Shown here in pieces: positions 2,845 through 58,802 of a DNA stretch of 64,000 nucleotides; position 1 is the stretch's first letter, and every line of letters starts with the position of its first letter. Under the pieces are notes generated by a model. The model did no database searches. It had not been told where the DNA came from and saw only the letters and a program-made list of their open reading frames with translations. The DNA is from Escherichia phage AugustSocin. The stretch lies in the sequence record MZ501052. One strand, written 5' to 3'. The translations under genes were made by a program, and so were the position numbers.

Positions 2845-3131
2845 TAGAACCTCATCTGAAAACCATGCGATTTAACATTACCGCCGCCAATATCAGAAAT
2901 ATTAATTTCACGCGCAATCGAAGGATCGATGTCAATTTCACGATTAAGTTTAGCGATAGCTAAAGTATCACGCCCATTTACAGTACGGAACTCTAAAGGA
3001 CAAACCACATCAACGTAATTTTTAATCGATTCACTGGTAGGTTGCAAATGAGCAGGAAGGTCTTTGGGCGCCTTTGAGAAAACCACTTCACAGAAATTTT
3101 TACGGGTATCAAAATAAGTAGTCATAAACAT
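2844..3131 (-). CDS. hypothetical protein
   Basis: 95-aa ORF preceded by GAGG ribosome-binding site. Confidence 0.55.
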   Translation of the reverse strand: MFMTTYFDTRKNFCEVVFSKAPKDLPAHLQPTSESIKNYVDVVCPLEFRTVNGRDTLAIAKLNREIDIDPSIAREINISDIGGGNVKSHGFQMRF

Positions 3132-3172
3132 AGTATTTTCCTCAGTAAGGGGCCGAAGCCCCTCATTTTATT

Positions 3173-3550
3173 TTAAATATCAAATTCATTAAGAACTACA
3201 TCAAAGATTGCTTCAAGATGCTCAGGTTTAGCTCTGTTACTCAGAATATGACGAATCCAAGTTTTAACCAAAAGCTTGCGATTATCACCATTCCAGCAAG
3301 GATGAGTCCCTAAATCGCGTTGACGAAAATCATCATCCAGAGCGATTTTAAAGTTGGAACCTTCCATTGTGATTGAAACCGTGATGCCATTTTCAAATCG
3401 CATATAAACGTAATTAGGAGTCATATACTGTTCAATTTCGCATACTGATCCATTTTGATGTTTCCAAAGGCAAATAGTATCAATAGAACCTGCAATACCA
3501 TTAGAAACATATTTACGTTCAAAGTTGATGTAGTTCATTTTATTCTCCAA
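3173..3550 (-). CDS. hypothetical protein
   Basis: 125-aa ORF downstream of an early promoter-like element. Confidence 0.6.
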   Translation of the reverse strand: MENKMNYINFERKYVSNGIAGSIDTICLWKHQNGSVCEIEQYMTPNYVYMRFENGITVSITMEGSNFKIALDDDFRQRDLGTHPCWNGDNRKLLVKTWIRHILSNRAKPEHLEAIFDVVLNEFDI

Positions 3551-11928: not shown

Positions 11929-11934
11929 CACTCC

Positions 11935-13113
11935 TTAAAAGTATTTTTTAAAACTCATCATAACTTTATCATCAACATCATTATCAATCTGTGCAACAAG
12001 ATAAGATGACAGTTCTACTTCTTGCGGCGCGGATTGAACATTATCAGAATTAAGGTATTCACGAATCCAAGGATATGGATGTTTAACCGGAGCATCGGTA
12101 ATCGGGCATGGAAGACCACACTGTTTCATACGAGATACAGTTAAGTAATCAATAAAGCTCCACATGCTATTTGTATTTAATCCAGGAACATCGCCATCTT
12201 TAAATAAATGAACTGCCCAATCTTTTTCTTGGCGGTTAACTTCCATGAAAATATCAACTGCTTCTTGTTCACACTCTTTGGCAATTTTAACCCATTCATC
12301 GCCATCAGTACCAGATTGAAGTTGACGAATAATATATTGTGTACCTTTAAGATGAAGCTGCTCATCACGTGCAATAAATTTCATAATCTTCGCATTACCT
12401 TCCATGATTTCCATGTTCTTATGGAAGTTGAAAGTACATGCAAAGGATACATAAAAACGAATAGCTTCCAGAGCATTGATAACGTGCAGACAGAGATAAA
12501 GCGACTTCATCAGGTCTCGTTTACATTCTTCCAAATGAGTGAGACTGTTTGAATATGCTTCTAAATCATATTCATTTTCAGCAAAATAACTAAAGTTTTC
12601 TTTGGCGTTTTCCCAAATACGTGTCTTGTCCAGAACATCATCATAATAACGACCAATAGATTCAGCACGTTTCATGATAGCTTTATCTAATACAATCTCA
12701 TCAAATACCCTTGACGGATCAGTATAAAGATTTCGCATAATATGAGTGTATGAACGACTGTGAATAGTTTCACTAAAAGTCCATGTAGCAACCCATGTAT
12801 CAAGGCTTGGGTCTGAAATCAATGACATAAGTACAGCAGACGGTGCACGACCCTGAATGCTATCCAGAAGTGATTGATACTTCAGATTATTAGTAAAAAT
12901 ATTCTGCTGATATTGAGGAAGCTTATTAAACTGTGCAGCATCCATCATTAAGTTTACTTCTTCAGGACGCCAGAAAAATGACAACTGCTTTTCGGTTAAA
13001 TCTTCAAAAACTTTATGACGTTGAATATCATAACGCGCAATACCAAGACCTGAACCAAAAAACATAGGTTCTTTTAAAACATCAACTGGATTTGTATTAA
13101 AAACTGTGCTCAT
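11935..13113 (-). CDS. nrdB: ribonucleotide reductase small subunit, uninterrupted
   Basis: 392-aa contiguous ORF with class Ia R2 features; no intron insertion. Confidence 0.95.
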   Translation of the reverse strand: MSTVFNTNPVDVLKEPMFFGSGLGIARYDIQRHKVFEDLTEKQLSFFWRPEEVNLMMDAAQFNKLPQYQQNIFTNNLKYQSLLDSIQGRAPSAVLMSLISDPSLDTWVATWTFSETIHSRSYTHIMRNLYTDPSRVFDEIVLDKAIMKRAESIGRYYDDVLDKTRIWENAKENFSYFAENEYDLEAYSNSLTHLEECKRDLMKSLYLCLHVINALEAIRFYVSFACTFNFHKNMEIMEGNAKIMKFIARDEQLHLKGTQYIIRQLQSGTDGDEWVKIAKECEQEAVDIFMEVNRQEKDWAVHLFKDGDVPGLNTNSMWSFIDYLTVSRMKQCGLPCPITDAPVKHPYPWIREYLNSDNVQSAPQEVELSSYLVAQIDNDVDDKVMMSFKKYF

Positions 13114-13164
13114 AAATTTTCCGCTTAGTTAATAGTTGGTGACTCGTCCGTGAGTCAAATTATA

Positions 13165-15429
13165 TCATAATTTACAGGATGAACAATCTTCAGCTTTTGG
13201 AGTTTCTATTTCATAATCATCAGTACCAGAACCGTCACGGGTATTATGATAATAGAAATTTTTTCCGCCAAAATACCAGAAATACAAAAGGTCATCAATC
13301 ATTATTGACATTGGAACCTTGCCTTTAGGGAAGATTTGGGGGTCATAGTATGTATTCGCCGAAGCTGATTGACAAACCCATTTCAGCATAATAGCTACCT
13401 GCGTAAGATAAGGTTTATTACCTTTCTTAGCTAATTTCCATGTATAATCATAAAGGTCTATGTTATGCTCAATATTGGGCACGACTTGATTAAAGGAGCC
13501 CTCTTTTGATTCTTTAACAGAGACTGGTCCACGTGGAGGCTCGATACCGTTTGTACTGTTAGAAACTTGGGAAGATGACTCACATGGCATAAGTGCTGAT
13601 AATGTGCTATTACGGATGCCAAAGAGCTTAAGGTCTTCCCGCAGCGACGACCAGTCACAAACGTATTTTGGAGCTGCGATTTGGTCAATCTTTTTATTGT
13701 ACCAGTCGATAGGTAATTCGCCTCGAGACCAACGAGTGTCTGAATAATATTCACAAGGTCCTTTTTCTTTGGCGAGTTTAATGGATGCTTTAATGAGTCC
13801 ATACTGTAATCTCTCAAATAGTTCATGTGTTAAATCGTTAGCATCTTCATAAGAAGCAAAGTTACTTGCCAACCAAGCTGCATAGTTAGTAACACCTACA
13901 CCGAGGTTACGACGCTTTTTAGCTTTTTCTGCTTCAGGAACTGGATATCCTTGGTAATCCAAAAGATTATCAAGAGCACGAACCTGGACTTCTGCCAATT
14001 CATTAATTTTATCTTGGTCTTGCCAGTCAAAATTATCCAGTACGAATGCAGAGAGAGTACACAATCCAATTTCAGCATCAGGACTATTCACATCATTTGT
14101 TGGAATAGCAATTTCACAGCACAAGTTACTCTGACGAATAGGTGCCTTTTCACGAATAAACGGAGTATAGTTATTCGTATTATCAATGAACTGTACATAA
14201 ATCCTTGCTGTTCCTGAGCGTTCAGTCATGAGCAATTCAAATAGTTCACGAGCTTTAATACGCTTTTTACGAATATTAGGGTCTTTTTCTGCGGCTTCAT
14301 ACAATTCACGGAAACGGTCTTGGTCTTTAAAATAAGAATAATAAAGCTCTCCGCCCATTTCATGGGGACTGAACAAAGTAATGTAATCGTTCTTTCCAAA
14401 ACGTTCCATCATCAAATCATTCAGTTGAACACCATAATCCATATGACGAATGCGGTTTTCTTCTACGCCTTTGTTATTTTTCAAAACAAGAAGATTTTCA
14501 ACTTCCAAATGCCAAATAGGATAATAAGCAGTAGCAGCGCCGCCACGAATTCCACCCTGTGAGCATGATTTAACAGCAGTCTGAAAATGTTTCCAAAAAG
14601 GAATAACACCAGTATGGCGTACTTCACCCATGCCAATCTTAGAACCTTCAGCACGAATCATACCAACGTTAATACCAATTCCAGCGCGTTTAGAGATATA
14701 TTCAACAATTGAAGCGGAAGCCTTATTGATAGACTTTAATGAATCACCTGCCTCAATAACAACGCATGAACTAAACTGCCGGGTTGGAGTACGGCAACCA
14801 GCCATAATAGGAGTTGGCAATGAAATCTGTCGAGTAGATACTGCTTCATAAAAACGGATAACGTGTTTTAATCTATCAACAGGTTCATCTTGATGCAATG
14901 CCATTCCAATAGTCATAAATGCAAACTGTGGAGTTTCATAAATTTGACCAGTGGTTTTATCTTTAACTAGATATTTTTCTTTTAATTGCATCGCCCCGGA
15001 ATAAGTAAATTCCATATCCCGCTCGTGCTTAATTTTTGATTCTAAAAATGTAATTTCTTCTGCAGAATATTTTGACAACAATTCAGGGTCGTATTTACCT
15101 TCATTTACACAGTAAGAAATATGGTCAATAAATGAACGTGGTTCATACTGCCCATAAACATGCTTACGAAGAGCAAACATTAAACAGCGTGCAGCTACAT
15201 ATTGATAATCAGGTTCTTCAACCGAAATAGAATTCGCAGCGGCCTTAATGACAATAGTCTGAATATCATCAGTTGTCATTCCATCACGGAGATAAGATTT
15301 AATATTTTCATATAATTCATAAGGATCTACTGATGTTCCTTCAGCTGCCCAAGATAAAACTTTAATAATTTTTTGTGGGTCAAAGCTCTGAGAAACACCA
15401 CTACTTTTGATAACATTAATTAATTGCAT
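13165..15429 (-). CDS. nrdA: ribonucleotide reductase large subunit
   Basis: 754-aa ORF, same length as T4 NrdA, adjacent to nrdB. Confidence 0.97.
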   Translation of the reverse strand: MQLINVIKSSGVSQSFDPQKIIKVLSWAAEGTSVDPYELYENIKSYLRDGMTTDDIQTIVIKAAANSISVEEPDYQYVAARCLMFALRKHVYGQYEPRSFIDHISYCVNEGKYDPELLSKYSAEEITFLESKIKHERDMEFTYSGAMQLKEKYLVKDKTTGQIYETPQFAFMTIGMALHQDEPVDRLKHVIRFYEAVSTRQISLPTPIMAGCRTPTRQFSSCVVIEAGDSLKSINKASASIVEYISKRAGIGINVGMIRAEGSKIGMGEVRHTGVIPFWKHFQTAVKSCSQGGIRGGAATAYYPIWHLEVENLLVLKNNKGVEENRIRHMDYGVQLNDLMMERFGKNDYITLFSPHEMGGELYYSYFKDQDRFRELYEAAEKDPNIRKKRIKARELFELLMTERSGTARIYVQFIDNTNNYTPFIREKAPIRQSNLCCEIAIPTNDVNSPDAEIGLCTLSAFVLDNFDWQDQDKINELAEVQVRALDNLLDYQGYPVPEAEKAKKRRNLGVGVTNYAAWLASNFASYEDANDLTHELFERLQYGLIKASIKLAKEKGPCEYYSDTRWSRGELPIDWYNKKIDQIAAPKYVCDWSSLREDLKLFGIRNSTLSALMPCESSSQVSNSTNGIEPPRGPVSVKESKEGSFNQVVPNIEHNIDLYDYTWKLAKKGNKPYLTQVAIMLKWVCQSASANTYYDPQIFPKGKVPMSIMIDDLLYFWYFGGKNFYYHNTRDGSGTDDYEIETPKAEDCSSCKL

Positions 15430-15746: not shown

Positions 15747-15975
15747 ATTGTTCTTCCGTTAAAACAGTAATATCGTAGTAACAGTCAGAAGAAGTTTTAA
15801 CTGTGGAAATTTTATTATCAAAATACTCACGAGTCATTTTATGAGTATAATATTTTTTGCCATAAATGATAATAGGCTGATTTGGTCCTGGAACTTCTAA
15901 CTCACTTGGATTAGGAAGTGTAAAAAGAACTACACCAGAAGTATCTTTAAATCGTAAAATCATATATCCTCGCAA
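15700..15975 (-). CDS. hypothetical protein (nrdA.2 position)
   Basis: 91-aa ORF; 3' end overlaps next ORF by ~47 nt in another frame. Confidence 0.5.
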
Positions 15976-15983
15976 TAATAAAA

Positions 15984-16844
15984 TTACACCGCCATCTTTC
16001 CTTTAATAGGAGGATGTGATTCATAGTTGTTAAGAACAAAATTATGAGGCTTTGCAAATTGACTCAACCAAAATACCTGCGATTCTGTGTCCCATTCATC
16101 AAATTCATCTGGAAATTTTAATTGTAATTCGCATAAATCCATAGGTTCACGACATAAAATTTCTTTACATTGTTCTACGTGATTCATATAGATATGAGTA
16201 TTACCACCAGAAAATATCAAATCTCCCGGAATAAGATTACACATCTTAGCTACAATATGAACTAACGTAGCATATGATGCAATATTAAATGGAAGACCGA
16301 GGAAAACATCTACCGAACGTTGATACCACTGAAGGTCAAGGTATCCATTACGCACATTAAACTGATAGAACATATGACAAGGCGGTAATGCCATATATTT
16401 AAGTTCAGCTGGATTCCACGCAGAAACAATTTGACGCCTATCATTTGGCAGTTTTTTAATACGATCAACAACTTCTATAATTTGGTCTACACCGCCAAAA
16501 TCACGCCACTGTTTTCCATAAATTGGACCAAGTTCACCGCTATGGTATCCTAAATCTTTTGCTTGATTTTCGTAATTTTCATCCCAGACTGTTTTGCCTT
16601 GAATTAATGAATCATGTTGAATTAATCGTAAATCATTGACATTTGTGCTTCCTGATAAAAACCAAAGCAGCTCAGCAATGCAAGCTTTCCAGGCGAGCTT
16701 CTTAGTTGTTACCGCAGGAAAACCTTTAGTTAAATCCCAGCGCAATTTAGTACCGAACAAAGCAATTGTTCCTGTGCCTGTTCGGTCATCGGTTTCATAG
16801 CCATTTTCAAAAATGTCTTTAATTAAATCTTGGTATTGTTTCAT
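15984..16844 (-). CDS. td: thymidylate synthase, uninterrupted
   Basis: 286-aa contiguous ORF with active-site motif [11 protein letters not shown]; no group I intron. Confidence 0.97.
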
Positions 16845-16889
16845 TTAGTACCTTATATAAATTATAATACATTTTATGAAGCTAAATAA

Positions 16890-17249
16890 TCAATACGGTT
16901 TAGCATCAAATTTTCTCTCAATTTCAGGTGTGAAATATAATTCTTTGCCACGTTTGGAAAAGCGACCAATAATATGATAATTATTCTCATCAAACGTGAT
17001 ATTACCAATATCCATAGCTTTCAACCAAATATCGATATTTCTATCCAGCTTTATGTCAAAATTCCAATACGGAGAACTATTACCGAAAATACTGCAAGCG
17101 GATTCAGTGAAACAACTACTATAAATCTTGTCTTTAGGAACTACTAATTGATAGACGCCTTTAATAAACTGAGGACCTTGCCATTTTGGCTGTTTCGCGT
17201 CTTTTTCTAATAGAATAGGGTAATAATTAAAATTCATATTTTCCGCCAC
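16890..17249 (-). CDS. hypothetical protein inserted between frd and td
   Basis: 119-aa ORF with start 9 nt after frd stop. Confidence 0.6.
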   Translation of the reverse strand: MAENMNFNYYPILLEKDAKQPKWQGPQFIKGVYQLVVPKDKIYSSCFTESACSIFGNSSPYWNFDIKLDRNIDIWLKAMDIGNITFDENNYHIIGRFSKRGKELYFTPEIERKFDAKPY

Positions 17250-17257
17250 GCGTTATT

Positions 17258-18084
<827 letters not shown>

Positions 18085-19536: not shown

Positions 19537-20445
19537 TTAAAGGTCATTCAAAAGGTCATCCAGGTCCGTGTCATCAGCACTAGATGAACTGCCAGAGCTT
19601 GAGCTCATAAAATCATCTTCAGTTTTTGTATTGAAGTCATCAACATTGAATGCATCCAAATCATCAGCAACTTTATCAGCTTTCTTAGCAGCAGTTGCTG
19701 CGGCACCGCCCATTACAGCAGTTCCCATAACTTGACCGAATTTAGTATTCAGTTCTTCAAACGATTTGAATTTATCTTTAGAAGTCATTTCAGAAAGGTC
19801 AACCATTTGTTCGAACAGTTCTTTCTGGAAAGATTCATCGTCAATGTTTGGAATCGCAGATTGATTCAGGAATTTAGATTCGTCGTAGTTACTAAAACCA
19901 GAAACTTGTTTAACTTTCAGTACAAAGTTAGCACCTTCCCACGGACAAGTTACATCAACCGGGGTTTCACCCATTTCAACATCAACCGCAATCATCGCGT
20001 TGATTTTATCCCAGATTTTCTTACCGAAGCGGTATTTAAATACTTTACCTTCATTTTCTGGAGCAGCTGGGTCTTTTACTACAAGAATGTTAGCCCAGTA
20101 AGAAGTTTTACGTTTAACAAGACCATACTCTTTATTGTCAGTGTTATACAAATCATTTTTACTGATGTACTGACATACTGGACAAGAATCGTAATCACCG
20201 TAGGTAGATGAGCATGTTTCGATATACCATTTACCATTTTTCTTGAAACCGTGATTTACAAGAAGTGCGAATGGTGCTTGTTCATCATTTTTAGACGGAA
20301 GAAAACGAATTACTGCTTGACCGTTACCCGCATTATCGAGTTTCAGTTTCCACTCGCCTTTATCTTCAGAAGAAAAACCACCTTTATTTCCAGCCAGTTT
20401 AGCCATTTGTGCAGCGAGTTCAGCAGTAGATTTACGTTTAAACAT
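19537..20445 (-). CDS. 32: single-stranded DNA-binding protein gp32
   Basis: 302-aa [53 protein letters not shown]..., acidic Ser/Asp-rich C-terminus. Confidence 0.97.
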
Positions 20446-20495
20446 TTTTATTTCCTTTTTAATTTAATTAACAGTTGGTGCTATGACACTTTACC
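20446..20495 (-). promoter_or_regulatory. gene 32 5' leader with AU-rich translational operator-like sequence
   Basis: mRNA sense ...UUAAAUUAAAAAGGAAAUAAAAAUG immediately upstream of gene 32 start, resembling the T4 gp32 autoregulatory site. Confidence 0.55.
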
Positions 20496-21130
20496 TCATA
20501 GCTGGCATAATTCACAATACTCTGGGTCTTCGAGAGGTATCCAACCTGAGTTGAAATACTTTACCATCGATTTAGCAGTTGTATCAGTTATATTTATATT
20601 ACCTTTAACTCTTCGCCATCCAGGAGTTTTACCGTACAGATTAGAGGATAATAATAACACATAATTCTCGTAAGCAATATGAGATAATTTCCAAGACTCT
20701 ATATTAGCTCGTGATGTTTTCCAAGGTCTAAAATCGTCACGGTTCATATAATTAGCCAATCTCATATGCTCTCTAACTTCCGGGTCTTTGGCTGGATGAG
20801 TTTCACCACTCACACCAAATCCGCCGCCAGCATATACCAGATTAAAATAGTCTGGATTATCTCTGGCATTTACTTCAAGTTGGTATTTTCGCTCTGCTTC
20901 AATAACATCCAAATCATCATCAATTTGAATTATTTTAACGCTCGGTTTTTGAAGCATTACCGCATTTAAAAATCTTTTTTGTTTGCACGAACTCCAGTAT
21001 TCCTTTCCGGAAGAGTCATATATTATTCCATTCTCAAATGAGCAATTTAATTTACTGCCGATATAGTATAGTACGGCGGAGTCTTATTTTTGACACGGTC
21101 TTCAAATGTAAACCAATATACTATATTCAT
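20496..21130 (-). pseudogene. possible frameshifted gene at the segG position (GIY-YIG-like remnant?) between genes 32 and 59
   Basis: 27-codon ORF (MNIVYWFTFEDRVKNKTPPYY...) coupled to gene 59 stop; the 153-aa track ORF frame is open a further 43 codons upstream with no start codon and contains LYYIGSKLN. Confidence 0.45.
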
Positions 21131-21131
21131 A

Positions 21132-21785
21132 TTAATACTTGCAAGATTTCACAGTTTCAATGAAAACACTTTTAGCTTTCTGTGAATCAATATTTAAAAT
21201 TTTTCTATAAGCCTTTAACTTTATAGAATAATTATTCCAGACTAAATTATCAGTCTGTTCATCATGTTTATCAATTAAATTTAAAAACGAATCAAGCAAG
21301 ATAAACGTCTCAAACGAAATTATGTTCGATTGCAGAAGTTTAAAAATATAACTTGATTGAACTTTTGGATTATATTCAAAAATTTCTTTAAAAGCAGAAA
21401 CTTCAACTTTTTTACTAAAATAATAAATATTGCGAATATCTTCTTCAAACTTAAATTTAATTTGCTTTAAGCGTCCGATATATTCACGATAAAACACAAG
21501 TGCATCAGCGTCAGAGATGTCACCAATCCAAGCATCTTGGTTAGCAACCAAATTACTTATAAAGATTAAAGCAAGTTCCTTTAATTTATATTTTTCTGAT
21601 AACTTCTGAAAAAAATACTTATCCCTTCGCTTTTGATAAGCGGCATCAGACACCCGCATGCACCAATTATACTTAATAACATCATACTTTCCATTCATAT
21701 GCTGTTTTATCATTAAGTATAATTTATAAACTGATTTACCATCAATGTATCTTTCACCACCAGCAGGCATGCGGAGTTTAATCAT
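21132..21785 (-). CDS. 59: helicase loader gp59
   Basis: 217-aa ORF MIKLRMPAGGERYIDGKSVYKLYLMIKQHMNGKYDVIKYNW..., T4 gp59 length and position. Confidence 0.93.
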   Translation of the reverse strand: MIKLRMPAGGERYIDGKSVYKLYLMIKQHMNGKYDVIKYNWCMRVSDAAYQKRRDKYFFQKLSEKYKLKELALIFISNLVANQDAWIGDISDADALVFYREYIGRLKQIKFKFEEDIRNIYYFSKKVEVSAFKEIFEYNPKVQSSYIFKLLQSNIISFETFILLDSFLNLIDKHDEQTDNLVWNNYSIKLKAYRKILNIDSQKAKSVFIETVKSCKY

Positions 21786-29118: not shown

Positions 29119-32100
29119 ATGGCTACTTTAAAACAAATACAATTTAAAAGAAGCAAAACGGCAGGTCAACGTCCAGCTGCTTCAGTATTAGCCGAAGGTG
29201 AATTGGCTATAAACTTAAAAGACCGTGTACTTTTTACTAAAGATGACCAGGGAAATATTATTGATTTAGGTTTTGCTAAAGGCGGTAGTATTGACGGGAA
29301 TGTTATTCATAAAGGCAATTATAACCAAACTGGAGATTATACTTTAAACGGTACATTCACCCAGACTGGTAATTTTAATTTAACCGGTATTGCTCGAGTA
29401 ACTCGTGATATTATTGCTGCTGGGCAGATTATGACTGAAGGCGGAGAACTTATTACAAAAAGTTCAGGTACATCACATGTTCGTTTTCATGATTCAGCTG
29501 ACCGTGAACGTGGAATCATTTTTTCTCCTGCTAATGATGGATTAACTACACAAGTAATTAACATCAGAGTTCAAGATTACAAAGCCGGTTCAGAAAGCAC
29601 TTTCGCTTTTAATGGAAATGGTTTGTTTTCTTCCCCGGAAGTTTTTGGGTGGAAATCTGTATCAACTCCGGTAATTTATACCAATAAAGTTATCACCAAT
29701 AAAAAAGTTAAAGATGATTATGACATCTATTCGATGGCAGACAATGTTCCATTGTCTGAAAGCACTACTGCTATTAATCATCTACGTGTCATGCGCAATG
29801 CAGTCGGTTCTGGTATTTTCCATGAAGTTAAAGATAATGATGGAATAACTTGGTATAGTGGAGATGGATTAGATGCTTATCTGTGGTCATTTACCTGGAG
29901 CGGCGGAATTAAATCAAGTCACTCAATTTCCATCGGTTTAACACCCGGACCTAAGGATTACTCAATATTAGGACCGTCTAGTATCGCTTTAGGAGATAAT
30001 GATACTGGATTTAAATGGCATCAAGACGGATATTATTTCAGTGTTAACAATGGCACAAAAACGTTTTTATTTAGTCCAAGCGAAACAACTAGCCTAAGAA
30101 AATTTGTAGCTGGATATTCTACTAACGGAACCGATTTAACTACTCCTCCAACTGAAAATTATGCTCTTGCTACTGTAGTGACATACCATGATAATAACGC
30201 GTTTGGGGATGGTCAGACTCTTTTAGGATATTATCAAGGCGGTAACTATCATCATTATTTCCGCGGCAAGGGCACTACAAACATTAATACTCACGGCGGG
30301 TTGTTAGTTACTCCAGGCAATATTGACGTTATTGGTGGTTCTGTTAATATCGATGGTAGAAATAATGCTTCTACAGCGATGTTTAAAGGTAACACAACAG
30401 GTAGTAGTTCTGTGGATAACATGACAATTTCTGTGTGGGGTAATACATTTATTAATCCAAGCGAAGGCACCCGCAAAAATGTCATGGAAATTTCCGATGC
30501 AACTAGCTGGATGAGCTATATTCAAAGACTTACTACTGGTGAAGTAGAAATGAACGTTAACGGTTCATTTGAATCATCTGGTGTTACTGCTGGAAATAGA
30601 GGAGTTCACACAACAGGCGAAATTTCATCTGGAGCAATGAATGCGCTTCGCATTTGGAATGCAGATTATGGAGCCATTTTTAGACGTTCAGAAGGAAGTC
30701 TTCATATTATTCCAACTGCTTACGGTGAAGGCAAAAATGGTGATATCGGTCCACTTCGTCCATTTAGTATTGCTTTGGATACTGGTAAGGTTGTTATTCC
30801 AGATTTAGAATCAAGTTATAACACGTTTGCTGCAAATGGTTACATTAAATTTGCTGGTCATGGGGCTGGTGCCGGCGGTTATGATATTCAGTATTCACAA
30901 GCTGCTCCTATTTTCCAAGAAATCGATGATGCTGCTGTAAGCAAATATTATCCTATTGTTAAACAGAAGTTTTTAAACGGTAAAGCCGTTTGGTCTTTAG
31001 GTACTGAAATTAATTCAGGTACTTTTGTTTTACACCATTTAAAAGAAGATGGGACACAAGGACATACATCAAGATTTAATGCTGATGGTACAGTTAATTT
31101 CCCCGATAACGTTCAGGTCGGCGGCGGTGAAGCTACTATTGCTCGTAATGGTAATATTTTCTCAGATATTTGGAAATCGTTTACTTCTGCGGGAGAAACC
31201 ACAAATATTCGCGATGCAATAGCTACTCGTGTTTCTAAAGAAGGCGACACGATGACTGGTAAATTGACTTTATCAGCAGGCAATGATGCTCTCGTTTTAA
31301 CTGCAGGCACGGGCGCTTCATCGCACATCCGTAGTGATGTAGGTGGTACAAGTAATTGGTATATTGGTAAAGGCGGTGCCGACAATGGTCTAGGTTTTTA
31401 CAGTTATGTTACACAAGGCGGTGTATATATAACAAATAACGGAGAAATATCACTTTCTCCTCAAGGACAAGGAACATTTAATTTTAATAGAGACCGCCTC
31501 TATATAAACGGTACACAATGGACCGCACATCAAGCTGGTGACTGGGCTAACCAATGGCGTCAAGAAGCACCGGTATTTGTAGATTTTGGTAATGTCGGTA
31601 ATGATAGTTATTATCCTATTATTAAAGGAAAATCCGGTATTACTGATGAAGGATACATATCTGGTGTAGATTTTGGTATGCGACGCATTACTAATACATG
31701 GGCACAAGGTATTATCCGTGTAGGTAATCAGGAAAACGGTTCCGACCCACAAGCTATCTATGAATTTCACTCTAATGGTACTTTTTATGCTCCGAGCTTA
31801 CTTAAGAGCGGTAGAGTATCAGCTGGTGGTGGTGACCCTGCATGGGGCGGGCCGTGTATTGTACTTGGAGATAACGATACCGGTTTGCTTTGGGAAAACG
31901 ATGGTATTTTCAACGCATATGCAAACGGCCAAGGTGTGTTTAGTTTTAGACCTGGTTTAGCTCAGACATTCGGTGGTGTTAACTTCCACTGTAATGCAGG
32001 TATGTATGTTCGTGATAACATTGATGTTAACGACGTTTATATTCGTTCTGATATTCGTTGTAAGTCGGAAATTAAGCTTATTAAGAACGCTCAAGAGAAA

Positions 32101-32367
32101 TCTAAACTATTGGGCGGTTATACTTATCTGCTTAAAAACTCTGTTACAGACGAAGTTAAACCGTCCGCAGGTTTAATTGCTCAGGAAGTTCAAGAAGTAT
32201 TACCTGAACTTGTTTCTGAAGATAAAGAGACCGGACTGCTTCGTTTGAACTATAACGGTATTATTGGTTTAAATACAGCTGCAATAAACGAGCATACAGA
32301 TGAAATAAAGGAATTGAAATCTGAAATTGCCGAATTGAAAGCATTAATTAAATCATTGATAAAATAA
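29119..32367 (+). CDS. 37: long tail fibre distal subunit gp37 with C-terminal intramolecular-chaperone-like domain
   Basis: 1082-aa ORF; C-terminal ~110 aa (DVYIRSDIRCKSEIKLIK...LLRLNYNGIIGLNTAAINEHTDEIKELKSEIAELKALIK) resembles tail-fibre/tailspike self-cleaving chaperone domains. Confidence 0.93.
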   Translation: MATLKQIQFKRSKTAGQRPAASVLAEGELAINLKDRVLFTKDDQGNIIDLGFAKGGSIDGNVIHKGNYNQTGDYTLNGTFTQTGNFNLTGIARVTRDIIAAGQIMTEGGELITKSSGTSHVRFHDSADRERGIIFSPANDGLTTQVINIRVQDYKAGSESTFAFNGNGLFSSPEVFGWKSVSTPVIYTNKVITNKKVKDDYDIYSMADNVPLSESTTAINHLRVMRNAVGSGIFHEVKDNDGITWYSGDGLDAYLWSFTWSGGIKSSHSISIGLTPGPKDYSILGPSSIALGDNDTGFKWHQDGYYFSVNNGTKTFLFSPSETTSLRKFVAGYSTNGTDLTTPPTENYALATVVTYHDNNAFGDGQTLLGYYQGGNYHHYFRGKGTTNINTHGGLLVTPGNIDVIGGSVNIDGRNNASTAMFKGNTTGSSSVDNMTISVWGNTFINPSEGTRKNVMEISDATSWMSYIQRLTTGEVEMNVNGSFESSGVTAGNRGVHTTGEISSGAMNALRIWNADYGAIFRRSEGSLHIIPTAYGEGKNGDIGPLRPFSIALDTGKVVIPDLESSYNTFAANGYIKFAGHGAGAGGYDIQYSQAAPIFQEIDDAAVSKYYPIVKQKFLNGKAVWSLGTEINSGTFVLHHLKEDGTQGHTSRFNADGTVNFPDNVQVGGGEATIARNGNIFSDIWKSFTSAGETTNIRDAIATRVSKEGDTMTGKLTLSAGNDALVLTAGTGASSHIRSDVGGTSNWYIGKGGADNGLGFYSYVTQGGVYITNNGEISLSPQGQGTFNFNRDRLYINGTQWTAHQAGDWANQWRQEAPVFVDFGNVGNDSYYPIIKGKSGITDEGYISGVDFGMRRITNTWAQGIIRVGNQENGSDPQAIYEFHSNGTFYAPSLLKSGRVSAGGGDPAWGGPCIVLGDNDTGLLWENDGIFNAYANGQGVFSFRPGLAQTFGGVNFHCNAGMYVRDNIDVNDVYIRSDIRCKSEIKLIKNAQEKSKLLGGYTYLLKNSVTDEVKPSAGLIAQEVQEVLPELVSEDKETGLLRLNYNGIIGLNTAAINEHTDEIKELKSEIAELKALIKSLIK

Positions 32368-32372
32368 TAAAA

Positions 32373-32386
32373 GGGCCTTCGGGCCC
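32373..32386 (+). other. stable hairpin GGGCC-UUCG-GGCCC in the 37-38 intercistronic region
   Basis: Perfect 5-bp GC stem with UUCG tetraloop 12 nt before gene 38 ATG; no U-tract. Confidence 0.5.
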
Positions 32387-32397
32387 TGGAGGTTTAT

Positions 32398-33177
32398 ATG
32401 GCAGTAGTAGGAATCCCTGGTTGGATTGGGACTTCAGCCGTTGCTGAAACGGGACAAAGATGGATGACGGCTGCTTCAAGGGAACTTCGTTTAGGAAACC
32501 CTTCATGGATGTCCCAATTCGCGGGCCGTTCAAGAGAAATAATTCACACACTTGGAGAAGACCATAACTTCAATGGTCAATGGTTCCGTGACCGTTGTTT
32601 TGAGGCAGGTAGTGCACCTATAGTGTTTAATATCACCGGAAATTTGGTATCATATAGTAAAGATGTTCCATTATTCTTTATGTATGGCGATACGCCAAAT
32701 GAATATGTTACTTTGAATATTCATGGTGGGGTTCATATGTGGGGACGAGGTGGTAACGGTACTGTAAACGGAAACCCAGGCACAAATGGTGGCGATGTAA
32801 TCCAAAATGATATCGGCGGAAGACTTCGTATTTGGAACTATGGCGTTATTGCATCAGGCGGCGGCGGTGGTGGTGCAGTGTCATTACAGAATAGCTGGGC
32901 GCCAAATGCTACAGCAGGTGGCGGTGGCGGCAGACCATTTGGCCTCGGCGGAGGCGGCGTTAATTGGCCGGGTGGTAATGCTAGTTATGACGCCCCGGGC
33001 GGAGCCGGTTACACTTCCCAATTCGGCGGAGGCAATGGCGGTGATGCCGGAGGATGGGGCGGAGATGGATGGGGTAATCACTTATCTAGATCTGGCGGTG
33101 GTGCTCCTGGCAGAGCAGTATTCGGAAGTTCACCGTCATGGGGTGCTACAGGCACAATCTACGGCTCCTGGATTTAA
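32398..33177 (+). CDS. 38: tail fibre adhesin gp38 (T2-type, glycine-rich motifs)
   Basis: 259-aa ORF with poly-Gly blocks ([48 protein letters not shown]) separated by short variable segments. Confidence 0.9.
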
Positions 33178-33195
33178 ACGATAATACCTCTCAAT

Positions 33196-33203
33196 TATAA
33201 ATA
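33196..33203 (+). promoter_or_regulatory. late promoter TATAAATA for holin t
   Basis: Exact TATAAATA ~20 nt upstream of t ATG. Confidence 0.7.
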
Positions 33204-33222
33204 TTGATAAATGGGAGGTAAT

Positions 33223-33882
33223 ATGGCAGCACCAAAAGTATCATTTTCGCCTAGTGATATTTTATTTGGGTTGCTAGACCGCATTTTCAAAGATAACGCC
33301 TCTGGAAATATTCTTATTTCCAGAGTTGCTGTTGTAGTTCTTTTGTTCCTAATGGCACTAATATGGTACAAAGGGAATATTTTTATGGATTATTACGTGA
33401 GGTCGAAATATGATACTTACACAGAAGTAATTCAAAAAGAAAGAAATACACGATTTGAATCTGCGGCTTTAGAACAACTACAAATAGTCCACGTCACATC
33501 AAGGGCGGATTTTAGTTCGGTGTATTCTTTCAGACCTAAAAATCTAAATTATTTCGTCGACCTTATTGCGTATGAAGGTAAGTTACCTAGCACAGTAACT
33601 GAAAAATCTATGGGAGGATTTCCTGTCGATAAAACGACAGCAGAATATTCGGTCCATTTAAGTGGACTTCACTTTACTTCTAAAACAGATTTTGCTTTCT
33701 TACCTACCAAATCAAAAACTCCGGAACTGGCATATATGTATAGTTGTCCTTACTTCAATTTGGATAACATATATGCTGGAACTGTTTCTATGTATTGGTA
33801 TAAGGGGTCAGATGTGTTAAATGAAGAACGCTTGGCCGCAATATGCAACCAAGCTGCAAGGATATTAGGGCGGGCTAAATAA
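33223..33882 (+). CDS. t: holin / lysis inhibition sensor T
   Basis: 219 aa from MAAPKVSFSPSDILFGLLDRIFKDN... with one N-terminal TM segment; GGGAGG RBS before this ATG (track ORF starts 4 codons upstream). Confidence 0.93.
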   Translation: MAAPKVSFSPSDILFGLLDRIFKDNASGNILISRVAVVVLLFLMALIWYKGNIFMDYYVRSKYDTYTEVIQKERNTRFESAALEQLQIVHVTSRADFSSVYSFRPKNLNYFVDLIAYEGKLPSTVTEKSMGGFPVDKTTAEYSVHLSGLHFTSKTDFAFLPTKSKTPELAYMYSCPYFNLDNIYAGTVSMYWYKGSDVLNEERLAAICNQAARILGRAK

Positions 33883-38565: not shown

Positions 38566-38646
38566 TCACTGGCGTCCGAAGACGCCTTTGGTTTTAAGAT
38601 TGTTACGATAGAACTGCATCACATGTTCGTTATGGAAATTACTCAT
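38566..38646 (-). CDS. stp: Stp peptide (26 aa)
   Basis: 26-codon [29 protein letters not shown] with ATG overlapping ndd stop; matches remembered T4 Stp length and sequence. Confidence 0.8.
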
Positions 38647-39103
38647 TAGTATGCCTGTAAAACAAATTTAAAGTTATCAGCCAACATACGGTTCATTTCT
38701 TCAAGTGTTTGATACTCAGAATGATGATTACGAGTAAACGCTAAAGCTAACTGTCCTTTTCCAAATCCCGTCGTCAGAGGTTTCATCTTAGAAGCAGGCA
38801 GATAAAATACTGTGTATGGAACATTGTTATTTGCAATAGTACGTGCAAGCTGAGACCGACGTTGACGAATATGACTTAGAACCGCGCTGAATCCTTGCTT
38901 AGAACGCTGATTACCTACATAAAATCGTGCAGACACACATGGATTACTAAATGGACGACCATCTAATTTACTCACTAAAAGTAAAATCCAGGTTTAGATA
39001 AAATATCTTTGTGTGGAACTCCCAAAAACCACTCACCACCCTTGATTGTACCAATAACAGTAGCGCCCGCATTATTCAGATCAGTAACAGTCATATATTT
39101 CAT
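38646..39103 (-). pseudogene. ndd: ndd (nucleoid disruption) interrupted by an apparent -1 frameshift
   Basis: 42-codon [45 protein letters not shown] stops at 38975; the 109-codon frame resumes there without ATG (track start is GTG); 42+109=151 codons; shift lies in A4 run at 38977-38980. Confidence 0.6.
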
Positions 39104-44834: not shown

Positions 44835-44870
44835 CAATTAATTATACCACATCCTTGTGGTAAAGTAAAC
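44835..44870 (-). promoter_or_regulatory. early promoter with hairpin in spacer
   Basis: Minus-sense GTTTAC then TACCAC-aaggat-GTGGTA inverted repeat and AT-rich -10, upstream of rIIA.1. Confidence 0.5.
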
Positions 44871-46690
44871 TACTGGCTCATCCATTCTTTACGAAGGTCA
44901 GCATTATCTCCCATGAGCATTTCAAAAAGCTCTTTCCAGTTCTCAGGAAGTTTAACAACATCATATACTGGGTTTTGAATCATCTCACGATATTCAGATT
45001 TTTCCAAAGAGCCAAGTCCCTTAATATAACGGATGCTATGTTTAGGTAGAGCATCTTTGGCACTCTCATATTCAGCGACTGTATAAAACCATTCTTGTTT
45101 TTTACCGACCTGAGCGATGATTACAGGAGTTTTGACAAAGCGAATTCGTCCTTGCTCAAACAATTCTGGCCAATTACTAAAAAATCCGAGCAGAGAAGGA
45201 TAAATGCTTCCTAGACCATCATGGTCAGCATCAGTCATAATAGCAATATTATGATAATTCAAGTTTTCAGCTTTTTCACCGAGAACTAATCCAGTGATTG
45301 CGCAAATATCAAATAGTTCTTTGTTTTTAAGCATATCTGCATAAGACATACCCCAACTGTTGAGAACTTTACCGCGCAATGGATAACCACCATGAAGTTC
45401 TTTATCACGAACATCAATAAGATATCCGATAGCAGAATCACCCTCAGTCAAGAAAAGAGTAGTATCAGCATCTTTACCGCAAAGATTCGCTTTGATATGT
45501 TTATGAACCTTAGCTTTAGAAGCCTTTTTAGCTGCTTTAGTTTCTGCTGCTTTTTCTGCCGCCAATTTACGAGCCAAAGCAGCTTCAATAATTGGCATCA
45601 GAATTGCTTCATTATTCAAAATAGCACGTGAAATCTTTTTAGCATCAAGCTGAATATGACTACGGATTTCACCAAATGGAGAAGTCAAACGCTCTTTAGT
45701 TTGAGAATCAAATCGCATGTTTTTCATATCACGGACAAACATAACGATAGTCAAACATTCTTTAACGCGTGCTTTAGTCACATCAATTTTGAACTTACGT
45801 TTGATTTGTGGAATAAGGTCTTCACAAATATCATCCATAACACAGTCAATGTGATGGCCACCATTCTTAGTGTGAATGTTATTCACATAAGTTAATTGAC
45901 GAAAACCATCCGGTGAACGACCAACCGCAATAGAGCAATTTTCTTGTTCTTGAACGATAGCATGCTCATCATATTGGCGTGCATATTTCTTAAAATTGCC
46001 CTGAACCTTTTTACCATTAAAGGTAAATTGAATATCAGGATAAACTACTGCAAGTGTCTGGAGACGATCTAGTGTAATGTCAAGATAAACTTGGGACAGC
46101 TCATTAGTTTCAAATGACATAAAATCTGGAATGAAAGTAACACGAGTTCCTTTCCATTTTCCAGGAATAGTTTCCCAGGATTTATTTTCCATGCCATTTG
46201 AACAACGAACTACAATATTATTTTGACCATCGCCAGTTTCACCGACAAACATCACAGAAAAAATGTTAGTTAAACTAGAACCAACACCATTCATACCACC
46301 GGTGACACGTTCTTTATCATCACCAAAGTTACCACCCGCTTTTGGAATAGTCCAGGCAGCAACTGGACCAGGAATTTCTTCACCGGTAGGTGTTTTAACC
46401 ATCGCTTGTGGAATACCACGACCGTTATCTTCAACTGTTACTTGATTGTTTTTGATAGTAACATTAATTTTATTTGCGAATTTAAACTTAGTACGAATAC
46501 CTTCATCTACTGAGTTATCGATAATTTCATCAATAAGCTTAACAAGACCAGGTACATACTGAACACTTTCCCATTTACCAAACAGAAAGCGCTCATGCAT
46601 TTCATTAGCAGAAGAGCCAATATACATGCCGCTACGCTTTTTGATATGTTCAATATCGCTCAGAATTTTAATTTCATTCTTAATCATCAC
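44870..46690 (-). CDS. 39: DNA topoisomerase II large subunit, single uninterrupted ORF (39 and 60 equivalent fused)
   Basis: 606-aa ORF with GHKL ATPase and Toprim-like regions; no separate gene 60. Confidence 0.93.
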   Translation of the reverse strand: MMIKNEIKILSDIEHIKKRSGMYIGSSANEMHERFLFGKWESVQYVPGLVKLIDEIIDNSVDEGIRTKFKFANKINVTIKNNQVTVEDNGRGIPQAMVKTPTGEEIPGPVAAWTIPKAGGNFGDDKERVTGGMNGVGSSLTNIFSVMFVGETGDGQNNIVVRCSNGMENKSWETIPGKWKGTRVTFIPDFMSFETNELSQVYLDITLDRLQTLAVVYPDIQFTFNGKKVQGNFKKYARQYDEHAIVQEQENCSIAVGRSPDGFRQLTYVNNIHTKNGGHHIDCVMDDICEDLIPQIKRKFKIDVTKARVKECLTIVMFVRDMKNMRFDSQTKERLTSPFGEIRSHIQLDAKKISRAILNNEAILMPIIEAALARKLAAEKAAETKAAKKASKAKVHKHIKANLCGKDADTTLFLTEGDSAIGYLIDVRDKELHGGYPLRGKVLNSWGMSYADMLKNKELFDICAITGLVLGEKAENLNYHNIAIMTDADHDGLGSIYPSLLGFFSNWPELFEQGRIRFVKTPVIIAQVGKKQEWFYTVAEYESAKDALPKHSIRYIKGLGSLEKSEYREMIQNPVYDVVKLPENWKELFEMLMGDNADLRKEWMSQ

Positions 46691-57203: not shown

Positions 57204-57409
57204 TACAAAAAGCCTCTTTTGAATTCAACTTGTTTATCGCCATAATCATATCGAATCTCTGCATTAAATTCGACAGAACCATCTGCGTACATCATAAATG
57301 AATGCACAACAACTTCTGTAGACCATGGTTGTAGTTCATATTTCTTCATTACATGCCGTGAAATGATAATATCTAAATCTTCATTTGGTTTAATCCAGCG
57401 ATTTAACAT
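57203..57409 (-). CDS. hypothetical protein
   Basis: 68-aa ORF downstream of early promoter-like element. Confidence 0.5.
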   Translation of the reverse strand: MLNRWIKPNEDLDIIISRHVMKKYELQPWSTEVVVHSFMMYADGSVEFNAEIRYDYGDKQVEFKRGFL

Positions 57410-57431
57410 AGTACTCTCCTCTATAAGATAA

Positions 57432-57465
57432 TTCTATTATACCATACTCATTTTGGAAAGTAAAC
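57432..57465 (-). promoter_or_regulatory. early promoter-like element
   Basis: Minus-sense GTTTAC, ~17-nt spacer, GGTATAATAG -10 region. Confidence 0.45.
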
Positions 57466-57471
57466 CGGTAA

Positions 57472-57500
57472 AATGAAAAAAAGGACTCCCTAGGGAGTCC
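57472..57500 (-). terminator. intrinsic terminator downstream of soc
   Basis: Minus-sense AGGACUCCC-UAGG-GAGUCCU hairpin followed by UUUUUUU. Confidence 0.7.
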
Positions 57501-57510
57501 TTGAATTATT

Positions 57511-57680
57511 AACCACCTATTTCTGTAGGCGTAAACATTGCAGCATTCTTAGTTTTCCAAGTTGCTGCATCGGAAACTACATCAGAATAAGCTGCTACCA
57601 CCTATTTCTGTAGGCGTAAACATTGCAGCATTCTTAGTTTTCCAAGTTGCTGCATCGGAAACTACATCAGAATAAGCTGC
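57511..57680. repeat. perfect tandem direct duplication, 2 x 85 bp, spanning the soc 3' end
   Basis: 57511-57595 and 57596-57680 are identical (ACCACCTATTTCTGTAGGCGTAAACATTGCAGC...AGAATAAGCTGCT). Confidence 0.8.
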
Positions 57681-57830
57681 TTTTTCTGACGGAAAGATTT
57701 GATAATGAGAATCTGCAATACGGTGTTCATTTGAATATACATCAAATGCTACAGAAACTTCCATACCTTTAACTTCTTTGCCTTCACCTGCTGGATGAGT
57801 AAAGGTCTTGATGTTAACGAAACCACCCAT
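57582..57830 (-). CDS. soc: small outer capsid protein Soc, C-terminus altered by the tandem duplication
   Basis: 82-aa ORF MGGFVNIKTF...FPSEKAAYSDVV...; a single repeat copy would end ...TEIGG (78 aa), current ORF ends ...TEIGGSSLF. Confidence 0.8.
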   Translation of the reverse strand: MGGFVNIKTFTHPAGEGKEVKGMEVSVAFDVYSNEHRIADSHYQIFPSEKAAYSDVVSDAATWKTKNAAMFTPTEIGGSSLF

Positions 57831-57862
57831 AATAAACTCCTTTATTGTTTAATTACAGGTGT

Positions 57863-57870
57863 ATTTATAA
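57863..57870 (-). promoter_or_regulatory. late promoter TATAAATA for soc
   Basis: Plus-strand TATTTATA (minus-sense TATAAATA) ~33 nt upstream of soc ATG. Confidence 0.65.
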
Positions 57871-58011
57871 CTTACAATTTAGCGGCTTTCCAGAGTTGTT
57901 CAATAATCTCTTGGTCTATTTCTTTAGTTATTTCATTACGTAATAAAGCAGTAAGGGCTTTCGCCCTTTTCTTATTCAACTTTTTGAGTTGACGTTTATT
58001 TAAACGAGACA

Positions 58012-58530
58012 TTAATAACCTCGGTCCTGACGAGCAAAGTTCTCGGCATTTTTCAGATAATAAAGTTTAAAGATTTCTTCTGCTGTAAGACCAAGACCTT
58101 GGAACATGTTCAGAACGAAATGGAGAATATCAATCATTTCAAACTTAATTTCCAGTTGGTCTTGTGGAGACAAATCAGTAATCAGAGTTTCACGACGTTC
58201 ACCATGCTGCGACTTCCAAGGTTTCCATACAGCAGATGCGTCTTTTTCACCATTACTCATACCACCAAGAGAAGTTAGAAGTTCACGGAATTCATCGTCA
58301 ATATAATCTTTCTGATTACGCAACCAATCAACAACTTCACCGGCAGTAGCCAAATCATCAGGATGACGATTATATTCAGGTTTATCTTTAGCTAAACGAA
58401 TCTGCAGAGATTTCTGCATGTCAAGCATTACCTGCAGCGGGTCTTTTTCATCACCGAGAATATCCCAATATTCATTTTGAGCTTTATCAACACCTTCGAT
58501 CAAATGAGCACATTCATTAAAGTGAGCCAT
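58012..58530 (-). CDS. 56: dCTP pyrophosphatase gp56 (MazG-like)
   Basis: ~172 aa from MAHFNECAHLIEGVDKAQNEYWDILGDEKDP...; track ORF starts 31 codons upstream at a hydrophobic Met. Confidence 0.9.
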   Translation of the reverse strand: MAHFNECAHLIEGVDKAQNEYWDILGDEKDPLQVMLDMQKSLQIRLAKDKPEYNRHPDDLATAGEVVDWLRNQKDYIDDEFRELLTSLGGMSNGEKDASAVWKPWKSQHGERRETLITDLSPQDQLEIKFEMIDILHFVLNMFQGLGLTAEEIFKLYYLKNAENFARQDRGY

Positions 58531-58601
58531 TATTTTTCCTTTCAATTCATGGGTTAGTAGATTAATTATACAATAAATATATAAAGCAATAAGGAGGACA
58601 T

Positions 58602-58802
58602 ATGGTACAAAAATTAATGGCACTTGTTAATGCCATCAAAGGTAATAAAAAGCGTATAGCTTTTACTATTTCTGCTATGGTAGGAATTTTACTCTGGAAC
58701 TTTATTTTATCACCTGTTGCAATTGCACATGGTATTAATATTCCAGTAGTTACTCTTGATACGTTCGTAGATTTAGCATTTGCTTTAGTTGGGTTAATTT
58801 AA
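58602..58802 (+). CDS. small membrane protein encoded on the opposite strand between genes 56 and 61
   Basis: 66-aa ORF with AAGGAGG 4 nt before ATG; two hydrophobic segments (FTISAMVGILLWNFILSPVAIA, VDLAFALVGLI); 3' end overlaps gene 61 stop. Confidence 0.55.
   Translation: MVQKLMALVNAIKGNKKRIAFTISAMVGILLWNFILSPVAIAHGINIPVVTLDTFVDLAFALVGLI

Follow-up and report, generated by a model that had tools for sequence, protein, structure and literature searches.

The closest described relative of the locus analysed here is segG of phage T4. T4 SegG cuts gene 32 of phages that lack segG, such as T2 (PMC2988022, table; PMC2330249), and in mixed infections it keeps T2 gene 32 out of the progeny (PMC2988022; PMC2330249); both papers cite Liu et al. 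2003 for the enzyme. The protein is a free-standing GIY-YIG homing endonuclease whose cutting drives its own copying and excludes the rival gene 32 allele. The DNA of segG also carries signals for its neighbour: the middle and late promoters of gene 32 lie inside it, favouring its retention (PMC2988022), and the pseudoknot of the gene 32 translational operator overlaps the segG reading frame (PMC535899).

The window, by which we mean the whole 64,000-nucleotide stretch that was analysed, is T-even (Tequatrovirus) phage DNA. Between genes 59 and 32 it holds a disrupted segG, with the following features in and around it:

21132-21785, minus strand: gene 59 (helicase loader), the upstream neighbour, intact, 99.1% identical to T4 gp59
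20496-21130, minus strand: the segG (T4 gene 32.1) locus, disrupted, 635 nt here against 633 nt in intact alleles
21047-21130, minus strand: ORF A, 27 codons plus stop, MNIVYWFTFEDRVKNKTPPYYTISAVN, its start coupled to the gene 59 stop
21124-21116, minus strand: the IVY box, in ORF A
21067-21070, minus strand: the TA insertion (2 bp, codon 21/22), which could be placed at more than one point within these four bases
21065-21057, minus strand: the YIG box, in frame B and out of frame with the IVY box
20496-21083, minus strand: open frame B, 195 codons in the -1 frame, equivalent to SegG residues 20-210 and beginning DSAVLYYIGSKLN
20671-20677, minus strand: TTGCTTA, a MotA-box-like motif read from the sequence, a candidate gene 32 middle promoter within segG
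20591-20598, minus strand: TATAAATA, the T4 late-promoter consensus, identical in T4; it lies inside segG, upstream of the ATG of gene 32 by about 146 nt
20480-20502, minus strand: a predicted hairpin (GCUAUGA...UCAUAGC) that is one of the stems of the translational-operator pseudoknot of gene 32
19537-20445, minus strand: gene 32 (ssDNA-binding protein), the downstream neighbour, intact, 909 nt, HY01-type

The minus-strand gene order is 32, segG locus, 59, 33, dsbA and rnh; gene 34 follows on the plus strand, from position 23398. This synteny (32 / segG / 59 / 33 / dsbA / rnh / 34) is the same as in T4. The initial annotation had assigned the locus to the position that segG occupies, between genes 32 and 59, and both the gene order and the comparison with T4 and HY01 agree: it lies on the minus strand and its start abuts the gene 59 stop. 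The gene 59 TAA occupies 21134-21132 and an ATG follows one base later at 21130-21128, giving the TAATATG junction to which a 27-codon ORF had been said to be coupled; that ORF does run from 21130 to 21047. Its first 21 residues are native SegG and include the IVY ('GIY') box, and six out-of-frame residues follow. Frame B, as also described earlier, has no start in its upstream part, although the count of open codons there is 42 and not 43: neither ATG, GTG nor TTG occurs before the ATG at 20957, which is Met58 of SegG. From this ATG the frame continues for 153 codons to a TGA at 20498-20496. Frame B retains two conserved residues, Glu79 and Asn96, together with the helical DNA-binding domain at the C-terminus. 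The 210-codon frame of segG is therefore split into 27 and 195 codons that lie in different frames.

We compared the 32-59 interval with that of related phages, as had been suggested. An 801-base query (20400-21200) matched 500 Tequatrovirus records by megablast at E=0, a resemblance far beyond chance, and 140 of the 500 span the whole segG interval at 97-99% nucleotide identity and are annotated as SegG or homing endonuclease. Over the full query the window is 97.3% identical to T4 and 99.4% identical to HY01, each of which has a 633-nt CDS abutting gene 59, the length of segG in intact alleles. Identity to the characterised T4 gene extends over its full length: by tblastn, T4 SegG residues 21-210 align with frame B at 99.5% protein identity, and residues 1-25 match ORF A. 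PHROG 7504 ('homing endonuclease') recognised the T4 protein at 1e-133 and the two window fragments at 6e-119 and 7e-10. The match of both fragments to this family, together with the alignment to T4 and HY01, confirms that this is a frameshifted seg-type GIY-YIG gene. It is not the 'decayed' remnant 'loosely' resembling seg genes that had been envisaged; outside the lesion its protein identity of 99.5% makes it segG itself.

Aligned with the HY01 allele, segG in the window differs by one synonymous SNP and one TA insertion only. The insertion turns the wild-type TACTACTATAT into TACTATACTATAT; on the coding strand, all intact alleles align as CCGTACTACTATATCGG, against CCGTACTATACTATATCGG in the window. 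It falls between the IVY and YIG boxes, splitting the nuclease domain. Judged by its sequence, the locus is the known gene segG, in its known place, with one apparently fresh lesion, and nothing about its kind is new. Provided that the sequence is right, it would be a pseudogene or allele of segG and not a functional member of the family. The lesion itself appears very recent, the remainder of the gene being undecayed.

Of the phage records that cover this stretch, 138 in all, not one has the insertion; the best reached 97.5% identity, equivalent to two gap columns. Nor was it found in 10 public metagenome contigs, in JGI metagenomes or in IMG/VR, where the negative is weak because IMG/VR has just one contig with an intact allele. 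The TA-insertion allele is private among the sequences searched. In a spread sample of 60 rows from 141 segG records, 56 of the 57 natural full-length copies measured 633 nt and one an in-frame 630 nt; the same sample included phage a51, with an independent TC insertion, and two mutant T4 clones with segG lesions. About 360 of roughly 500 related genomes, including those of T2, T6, RB14 and RB32, lack segG altogether. The gene is a presence/absence element, and phages that have it nearly always have it intact; the a51 insertion and the lesions of the mutant T4 clones indicate that it is dispensable and occasionally hit. Phage a51 (L004, 1547-2236) is a natural isolate in which the 2-bp insertion truncates segG, annotated there as a 178-residue protein; its gene 32 haplotype is that of the window.

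The strings IVYWF and LYYIGSKLN, which the initial annotation had likened to the GIY and YIG boxes, proved to be real motifs. Across 14 homologues from a large protein collection, Tyr22-Ile23-Gly24, Glu79 and Asn96 are invariant. An AlphaFold model computed on the homologue alignment (mean pLDDT 85) predicts an alpha/beta domain of GIY-YIG fold (residues 1-98) joined by a disordered linker (99-108) to a helical domain at the C-terminus, and it places the IVY box (residues 3-5) and the YIG box (22-24) on the first two beta strands, E2-8 and E21-26. By BLASTP, SegG residues 64-112 align with the Glu/Asn motif region of I-TevI (E = 0.007), and the catalytic Glu75 and Asn90 of I-TevI have conserved counterparts in Glu79 and Asn96 of SegG; for Arg27 of I-TevI no confident counterpart emerged.

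Curated models gave a different answer. Neither Pfam (PF01541 and relatives) nor NCBIfam returned a match at E <= 1 for the window fragments or for intact T4 SegG (L001, 1605-2234), and a sequence search of the PDB likewise found nothing, even for intact T4 SegG. Because the fold result is positive, we take the missing match as blindness of the models and not as exclusion. The search with GIY-YIG HMMs that had been proposed as a check does report no similarity, but it reports none for the intact T4 protein either, and read as a refutation it would have wrongly dismissed a correct idea. One distant relative (P0050) gave a sub-threshold match to PF19835, SegE_GIY-YIG, at E = 0.005. SegG is an experimentally characterised GIY-YIG enzyme, yet it is recognised only by PHROGs and by structure comparison.

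A profile search of 1.84 billion representative proteins returned 269 relatives, most of which share just the first ~100 residues and carry other C-termini; NUMOD3 matches in Pfam were present in seven of ten scanned relatives, six of them above the Pfam cut-off. Among PHROGs, the C-terminal half of SegG matches further homing-endonuclease families, and it resembles DNA-binding domains of the helix-turn-helix type. As modelled, SegG follows the usual modular plan, in which a linker joins a nuclease to a DNA-binding domain. The C-terminal part, once suspected of being an unrelated fusion, is instead SegG's own helix-turn-helix-like DNA-binding domain (residues ~110-210).

The frameshift caused by the TA insertion at codon 21/22 falls between the first and the second beta strand of the nuclease domain, those that bear IVY and YIG. 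Translation coupled to gene 59 would stop after 27 codons; for the remaining 190 SegG codons the first start would be Met58, with no ribosome-binding site visible by eye. The ATG at 20957 lies 90 nt beyond the ORF A stop, and by eye no Shine-Dalgarno sequence precedes it (AAATGCGGTAATG). With the coupled ORF ending at 27 codons and neither a start nor a ribosome-binding site before Met58, no active SegG nuclease should be made, and with SegG inactive the phage should have lost the SegG-driven exclusion of rival gene 32 alleles.

If the frameshifted gene were still useful, it might be through a 153-residue C-terminal product starting at Met58, a nuclease-dead DNA-binding protein that could, for example, act on the gene 32 region as a shield or a regulator. 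In favour of this, the ATG does open a 153-codon ORF, the modelled product would keep the whole well-folded helical domain (pLDDT 85-95 over residues 130-210), and at least 60 public contigs carry gene calls with this start. However, all 10 of the contigs with Met58 calls that we fetched have the intact 210-codon gene, and the arrangement finds no support in conservation. The start lacks a visible Shine-Dalgarno sequence, its distance of 90 nt from the ORF A stop is too great for coupling, and the product would be without the strands bearing IVY and YIG. We therefore regard a useful Met58 product as very unlikely.

We also considered, and rejected, the 153-residue product as a sign that the frameshift is widespread, since the N-terminus is intact in all 10 contigs fetched; for the same reason we attribute the Met58 calls to the start choices of gene callers. 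The exact 153-residue product occurs on at least 60 public contigs, with the gene at 3001-3462 of each of contigs L008-L017, and Met58 is also the start chosen in the gene calls of the GenBank phages PEC04 and AugustSocin.

Full-length SegG, with one residue added, could in principle be restored if ribosomes underwent a programmed -1 frameshift within the overlap (21083-21047), which would limit the dosage of the nuclease. The two frames overlap by 12 codons, within which a -1 shift would have this effect, and T-even phages are known for recoding, the bypass of T4 gene 60 being annotated. Read by eye, though, the overlap (GACUCCGCCGUACUAUACUAUAUCGGCAGUAAAUUAA) has neither an X XXY YYZ slippery heptamer nor a homopolymer run, and the split arrangement occurs in no other genome searched, whereas real recoding sites are conserved. 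Programmed recoding here seems to us highly improbable. A further reading holds that the frameshift is real and not a simple loss: either the Met58 C-terminal domain, or full-length SegG made at a low level through a -1 shift of an unconventional type, would occupy the target site in gene 32 and leave it uncut, for instance as protection against incoming SegG-type nucleases or in the regulation of gene 32. We give such a gain from the lesion scarcely any credence. Our preferred reading, which we consider probable, is that the frameshift is a recent loss-of-function mutation.

This reading supposes that the lesion is biological. Because the insertion is known from one sequence, without reads it is inseparable from an assembly or base-calling error. 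Were it such an artefact, the phage would carry an intact 633-nt segG and the extra TA would be an error in a short TA/CTA-rich repeat (TACTACTATAT). An error of this kind would suit an allele that is unique to this sequence, in a gene that is otherwise pristine (one synonymous SNP relative to HY01) and intact as the norm. The only other split gene in the 64 kb, ndd, also has a private one-base change, in a run of five T, which is a classic type of error. On the other hand, sequencing platforms do not typically produce dinucleotide insertions outside homopolymers as consensus errors. Independent segG frameshifts exist in deposited genomes, as in a51, and young private lesions are to be expected in a dispensable selfish gene.

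When ~107 T4 proteins were searched against the translated window, ~93 orthologues were found, and only segG and ndd were split by a change of frame. The ~91 others, all essential genes included, read through cleanly, which argues against an artefact. The phage can dispense with both split genes, and its essential genes are unbroken, a distribution that fits real mutations in a propagated isolate and fits a low consensus-error rate too. Weighing these points, we judge an artefact possible but doubtful, and we retain the recent loss-of-function mutation as the probable explanation. Two options are left, a selfish gene whose copy here died very recently and a base-calling error, and the locus is ordinary under both.

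The other split gene, ndd (nucleoid disruption protein; 38646-39103, minus strand), has residues 1-42 and 42-151 in different frames. At ~38975-38980 its run of five T is reduced to four by one missing T (GGATTTTACTTTTAGTGAG, against TTTTTAGTG in phage T4). This lesion is private as well, all matching phage records listed having one base more.

We compared gene 32 between 14 loci with an intact segG and seven segG-less phages. Codon 77 encodes Thr (ACA or ACG) at 14 of the 14 intact-segG loci and Asn in six of the seven segG-less phages, T6 being the exception; the window (~20215-20217) and phage a51 have Thr77 too. Among 95 variable columns this is the only near-diagnostic site, and it lies ~285 nt from the insertion boundary. 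The association may mark a SegG target or recognition site, or a co-conversion tract. We rejected the idea that segG is dead because the phage has a SegG-sensitive (T2-type) gene 32: the window carries Thr77 and is HY01-type throughout gene 32, the haplotype of intact-segG phages, which leaves that idea unsupported. As separate observations, the gene 32 leader (20446-20480, compared with L001) has one 5-nt AATTA/TTAAA unit fewer than that of T4 and matches T2, and the first 60 nt of gene 32 are of the T2/HY01 type and not the T4 type.

Although the product is expected to be inactive, the DNA of the dead gene may well have been kept for the gene 32 promoters and the one operator arm embedded in it. 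The 5' arm of the operator hairpin contains the segG stop codon (20498-20496); on its own, the fold of this hairpin is not significant against shuffles (z = -0.69). In the segG-less phage T2 the short spacer between genes 59 and 32 has a TTGCTTA and a TATAAATA of its own; from the gene 59 stop it extends 36 nt to CCAGCTATGAGG, the last segG codons, where homology to phages that carry segG picks up again. Collectively, the embedded late motif, the MotA-like box, the operator hairpin and the point of resumption in T2 suggest that the 3' two-thirds of the dead gene is still regulatory DNA. A scan of the locus for sigma-70 promoters and terminators, which does not cover T4 middle and late promoters, gave nothing above shuffled expectation. 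Rfam has no family for the gene 32 operator, and its only match near the locus is a chance snoRNA.

Elsewhere in the window (44870-46690; 11931-13168; 15963-17261; 57409-58802), the T4 mobile elements I-TevI, I-TevIII, mobE and segF are missing, as are nrdB.1 and 60.1, and segG is the only T4-type homing-endonuclease gene seen in the 64 kb. Gene 39 is one uninterrupted 606-codon ORF without the mobA/gene 60 split, and dam is not at its T4 position between genes 56 and 61. The distal tail-fibre region (29119-33223) is not T4-type: gp37 is 34% identical to that of T4, and T4 gp38 has no match there.

If the lesion is real, it offers a snapshot of the first step in the decay of a homing endonuclease, a single frameshift with no other damage, in a gene whose DNA is not simply deletable given the gene 32 promoters and operator within it. 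The biological weight of this is small and the points that concern annotation matter more. SegG is invisible to Pfam and NCBIfam, so screens based on HMMs call it hypothetical, and Met58 starts chosen for intact segG create a spurious 153-residue protein in databases. A read-level check of the site is due before the locus is annotated as a pseudogene.

Set beside T4 SegG (gene 32.1, NP_049855), the window has the same 59-32 locus, the same orientation and the same start one base past the gene 59 stop, as well as the same embedded TATAAATA and overlap with the operator hairpin. It differs in that its ORF is broken by the 2-bp insertion at codon 21/22, and in its gene 32, where the leader is one unit shorter and the 5' end T2/HY01-type. 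The nearest alleles are those of HY01 (AHK11087) and PEC04, at 99.4% over 801 nt and with the same 909-nt gene 32 haplotype; HY01 segG is an intact 633 nt, to which the window adds one synonymous SNP and the TA insertion. As a selfish nuclease gene that has lost its function and is still in the genome, the locus resembles T4 I-TevIII and mobA, which are annotated as defective. Those two carry old deletions common to T4 stocks, whereas the lesion in the window is a private, minimal frameshift with no further decay. The frameshifted segG of a51 is a further case of such a selfish nuclease gene, with a 2-bp insertion of its own.

At the level of the protein, the archetypal GIY-YIG homing nuclease is I-TevI, whose catalytic domain (PDB 1LN0) is 17% identical to SegG. 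Unlike I-TevI, SegG is free-standing and not intron-encoded, has an extra beta hairpin and is missed by the Pfam GIY-YIG models. In the classic GIY-YIG motif about 10-11 residues separate the two boxes; SegG has a longer spacer, with 16 residues between IVY and YIG.
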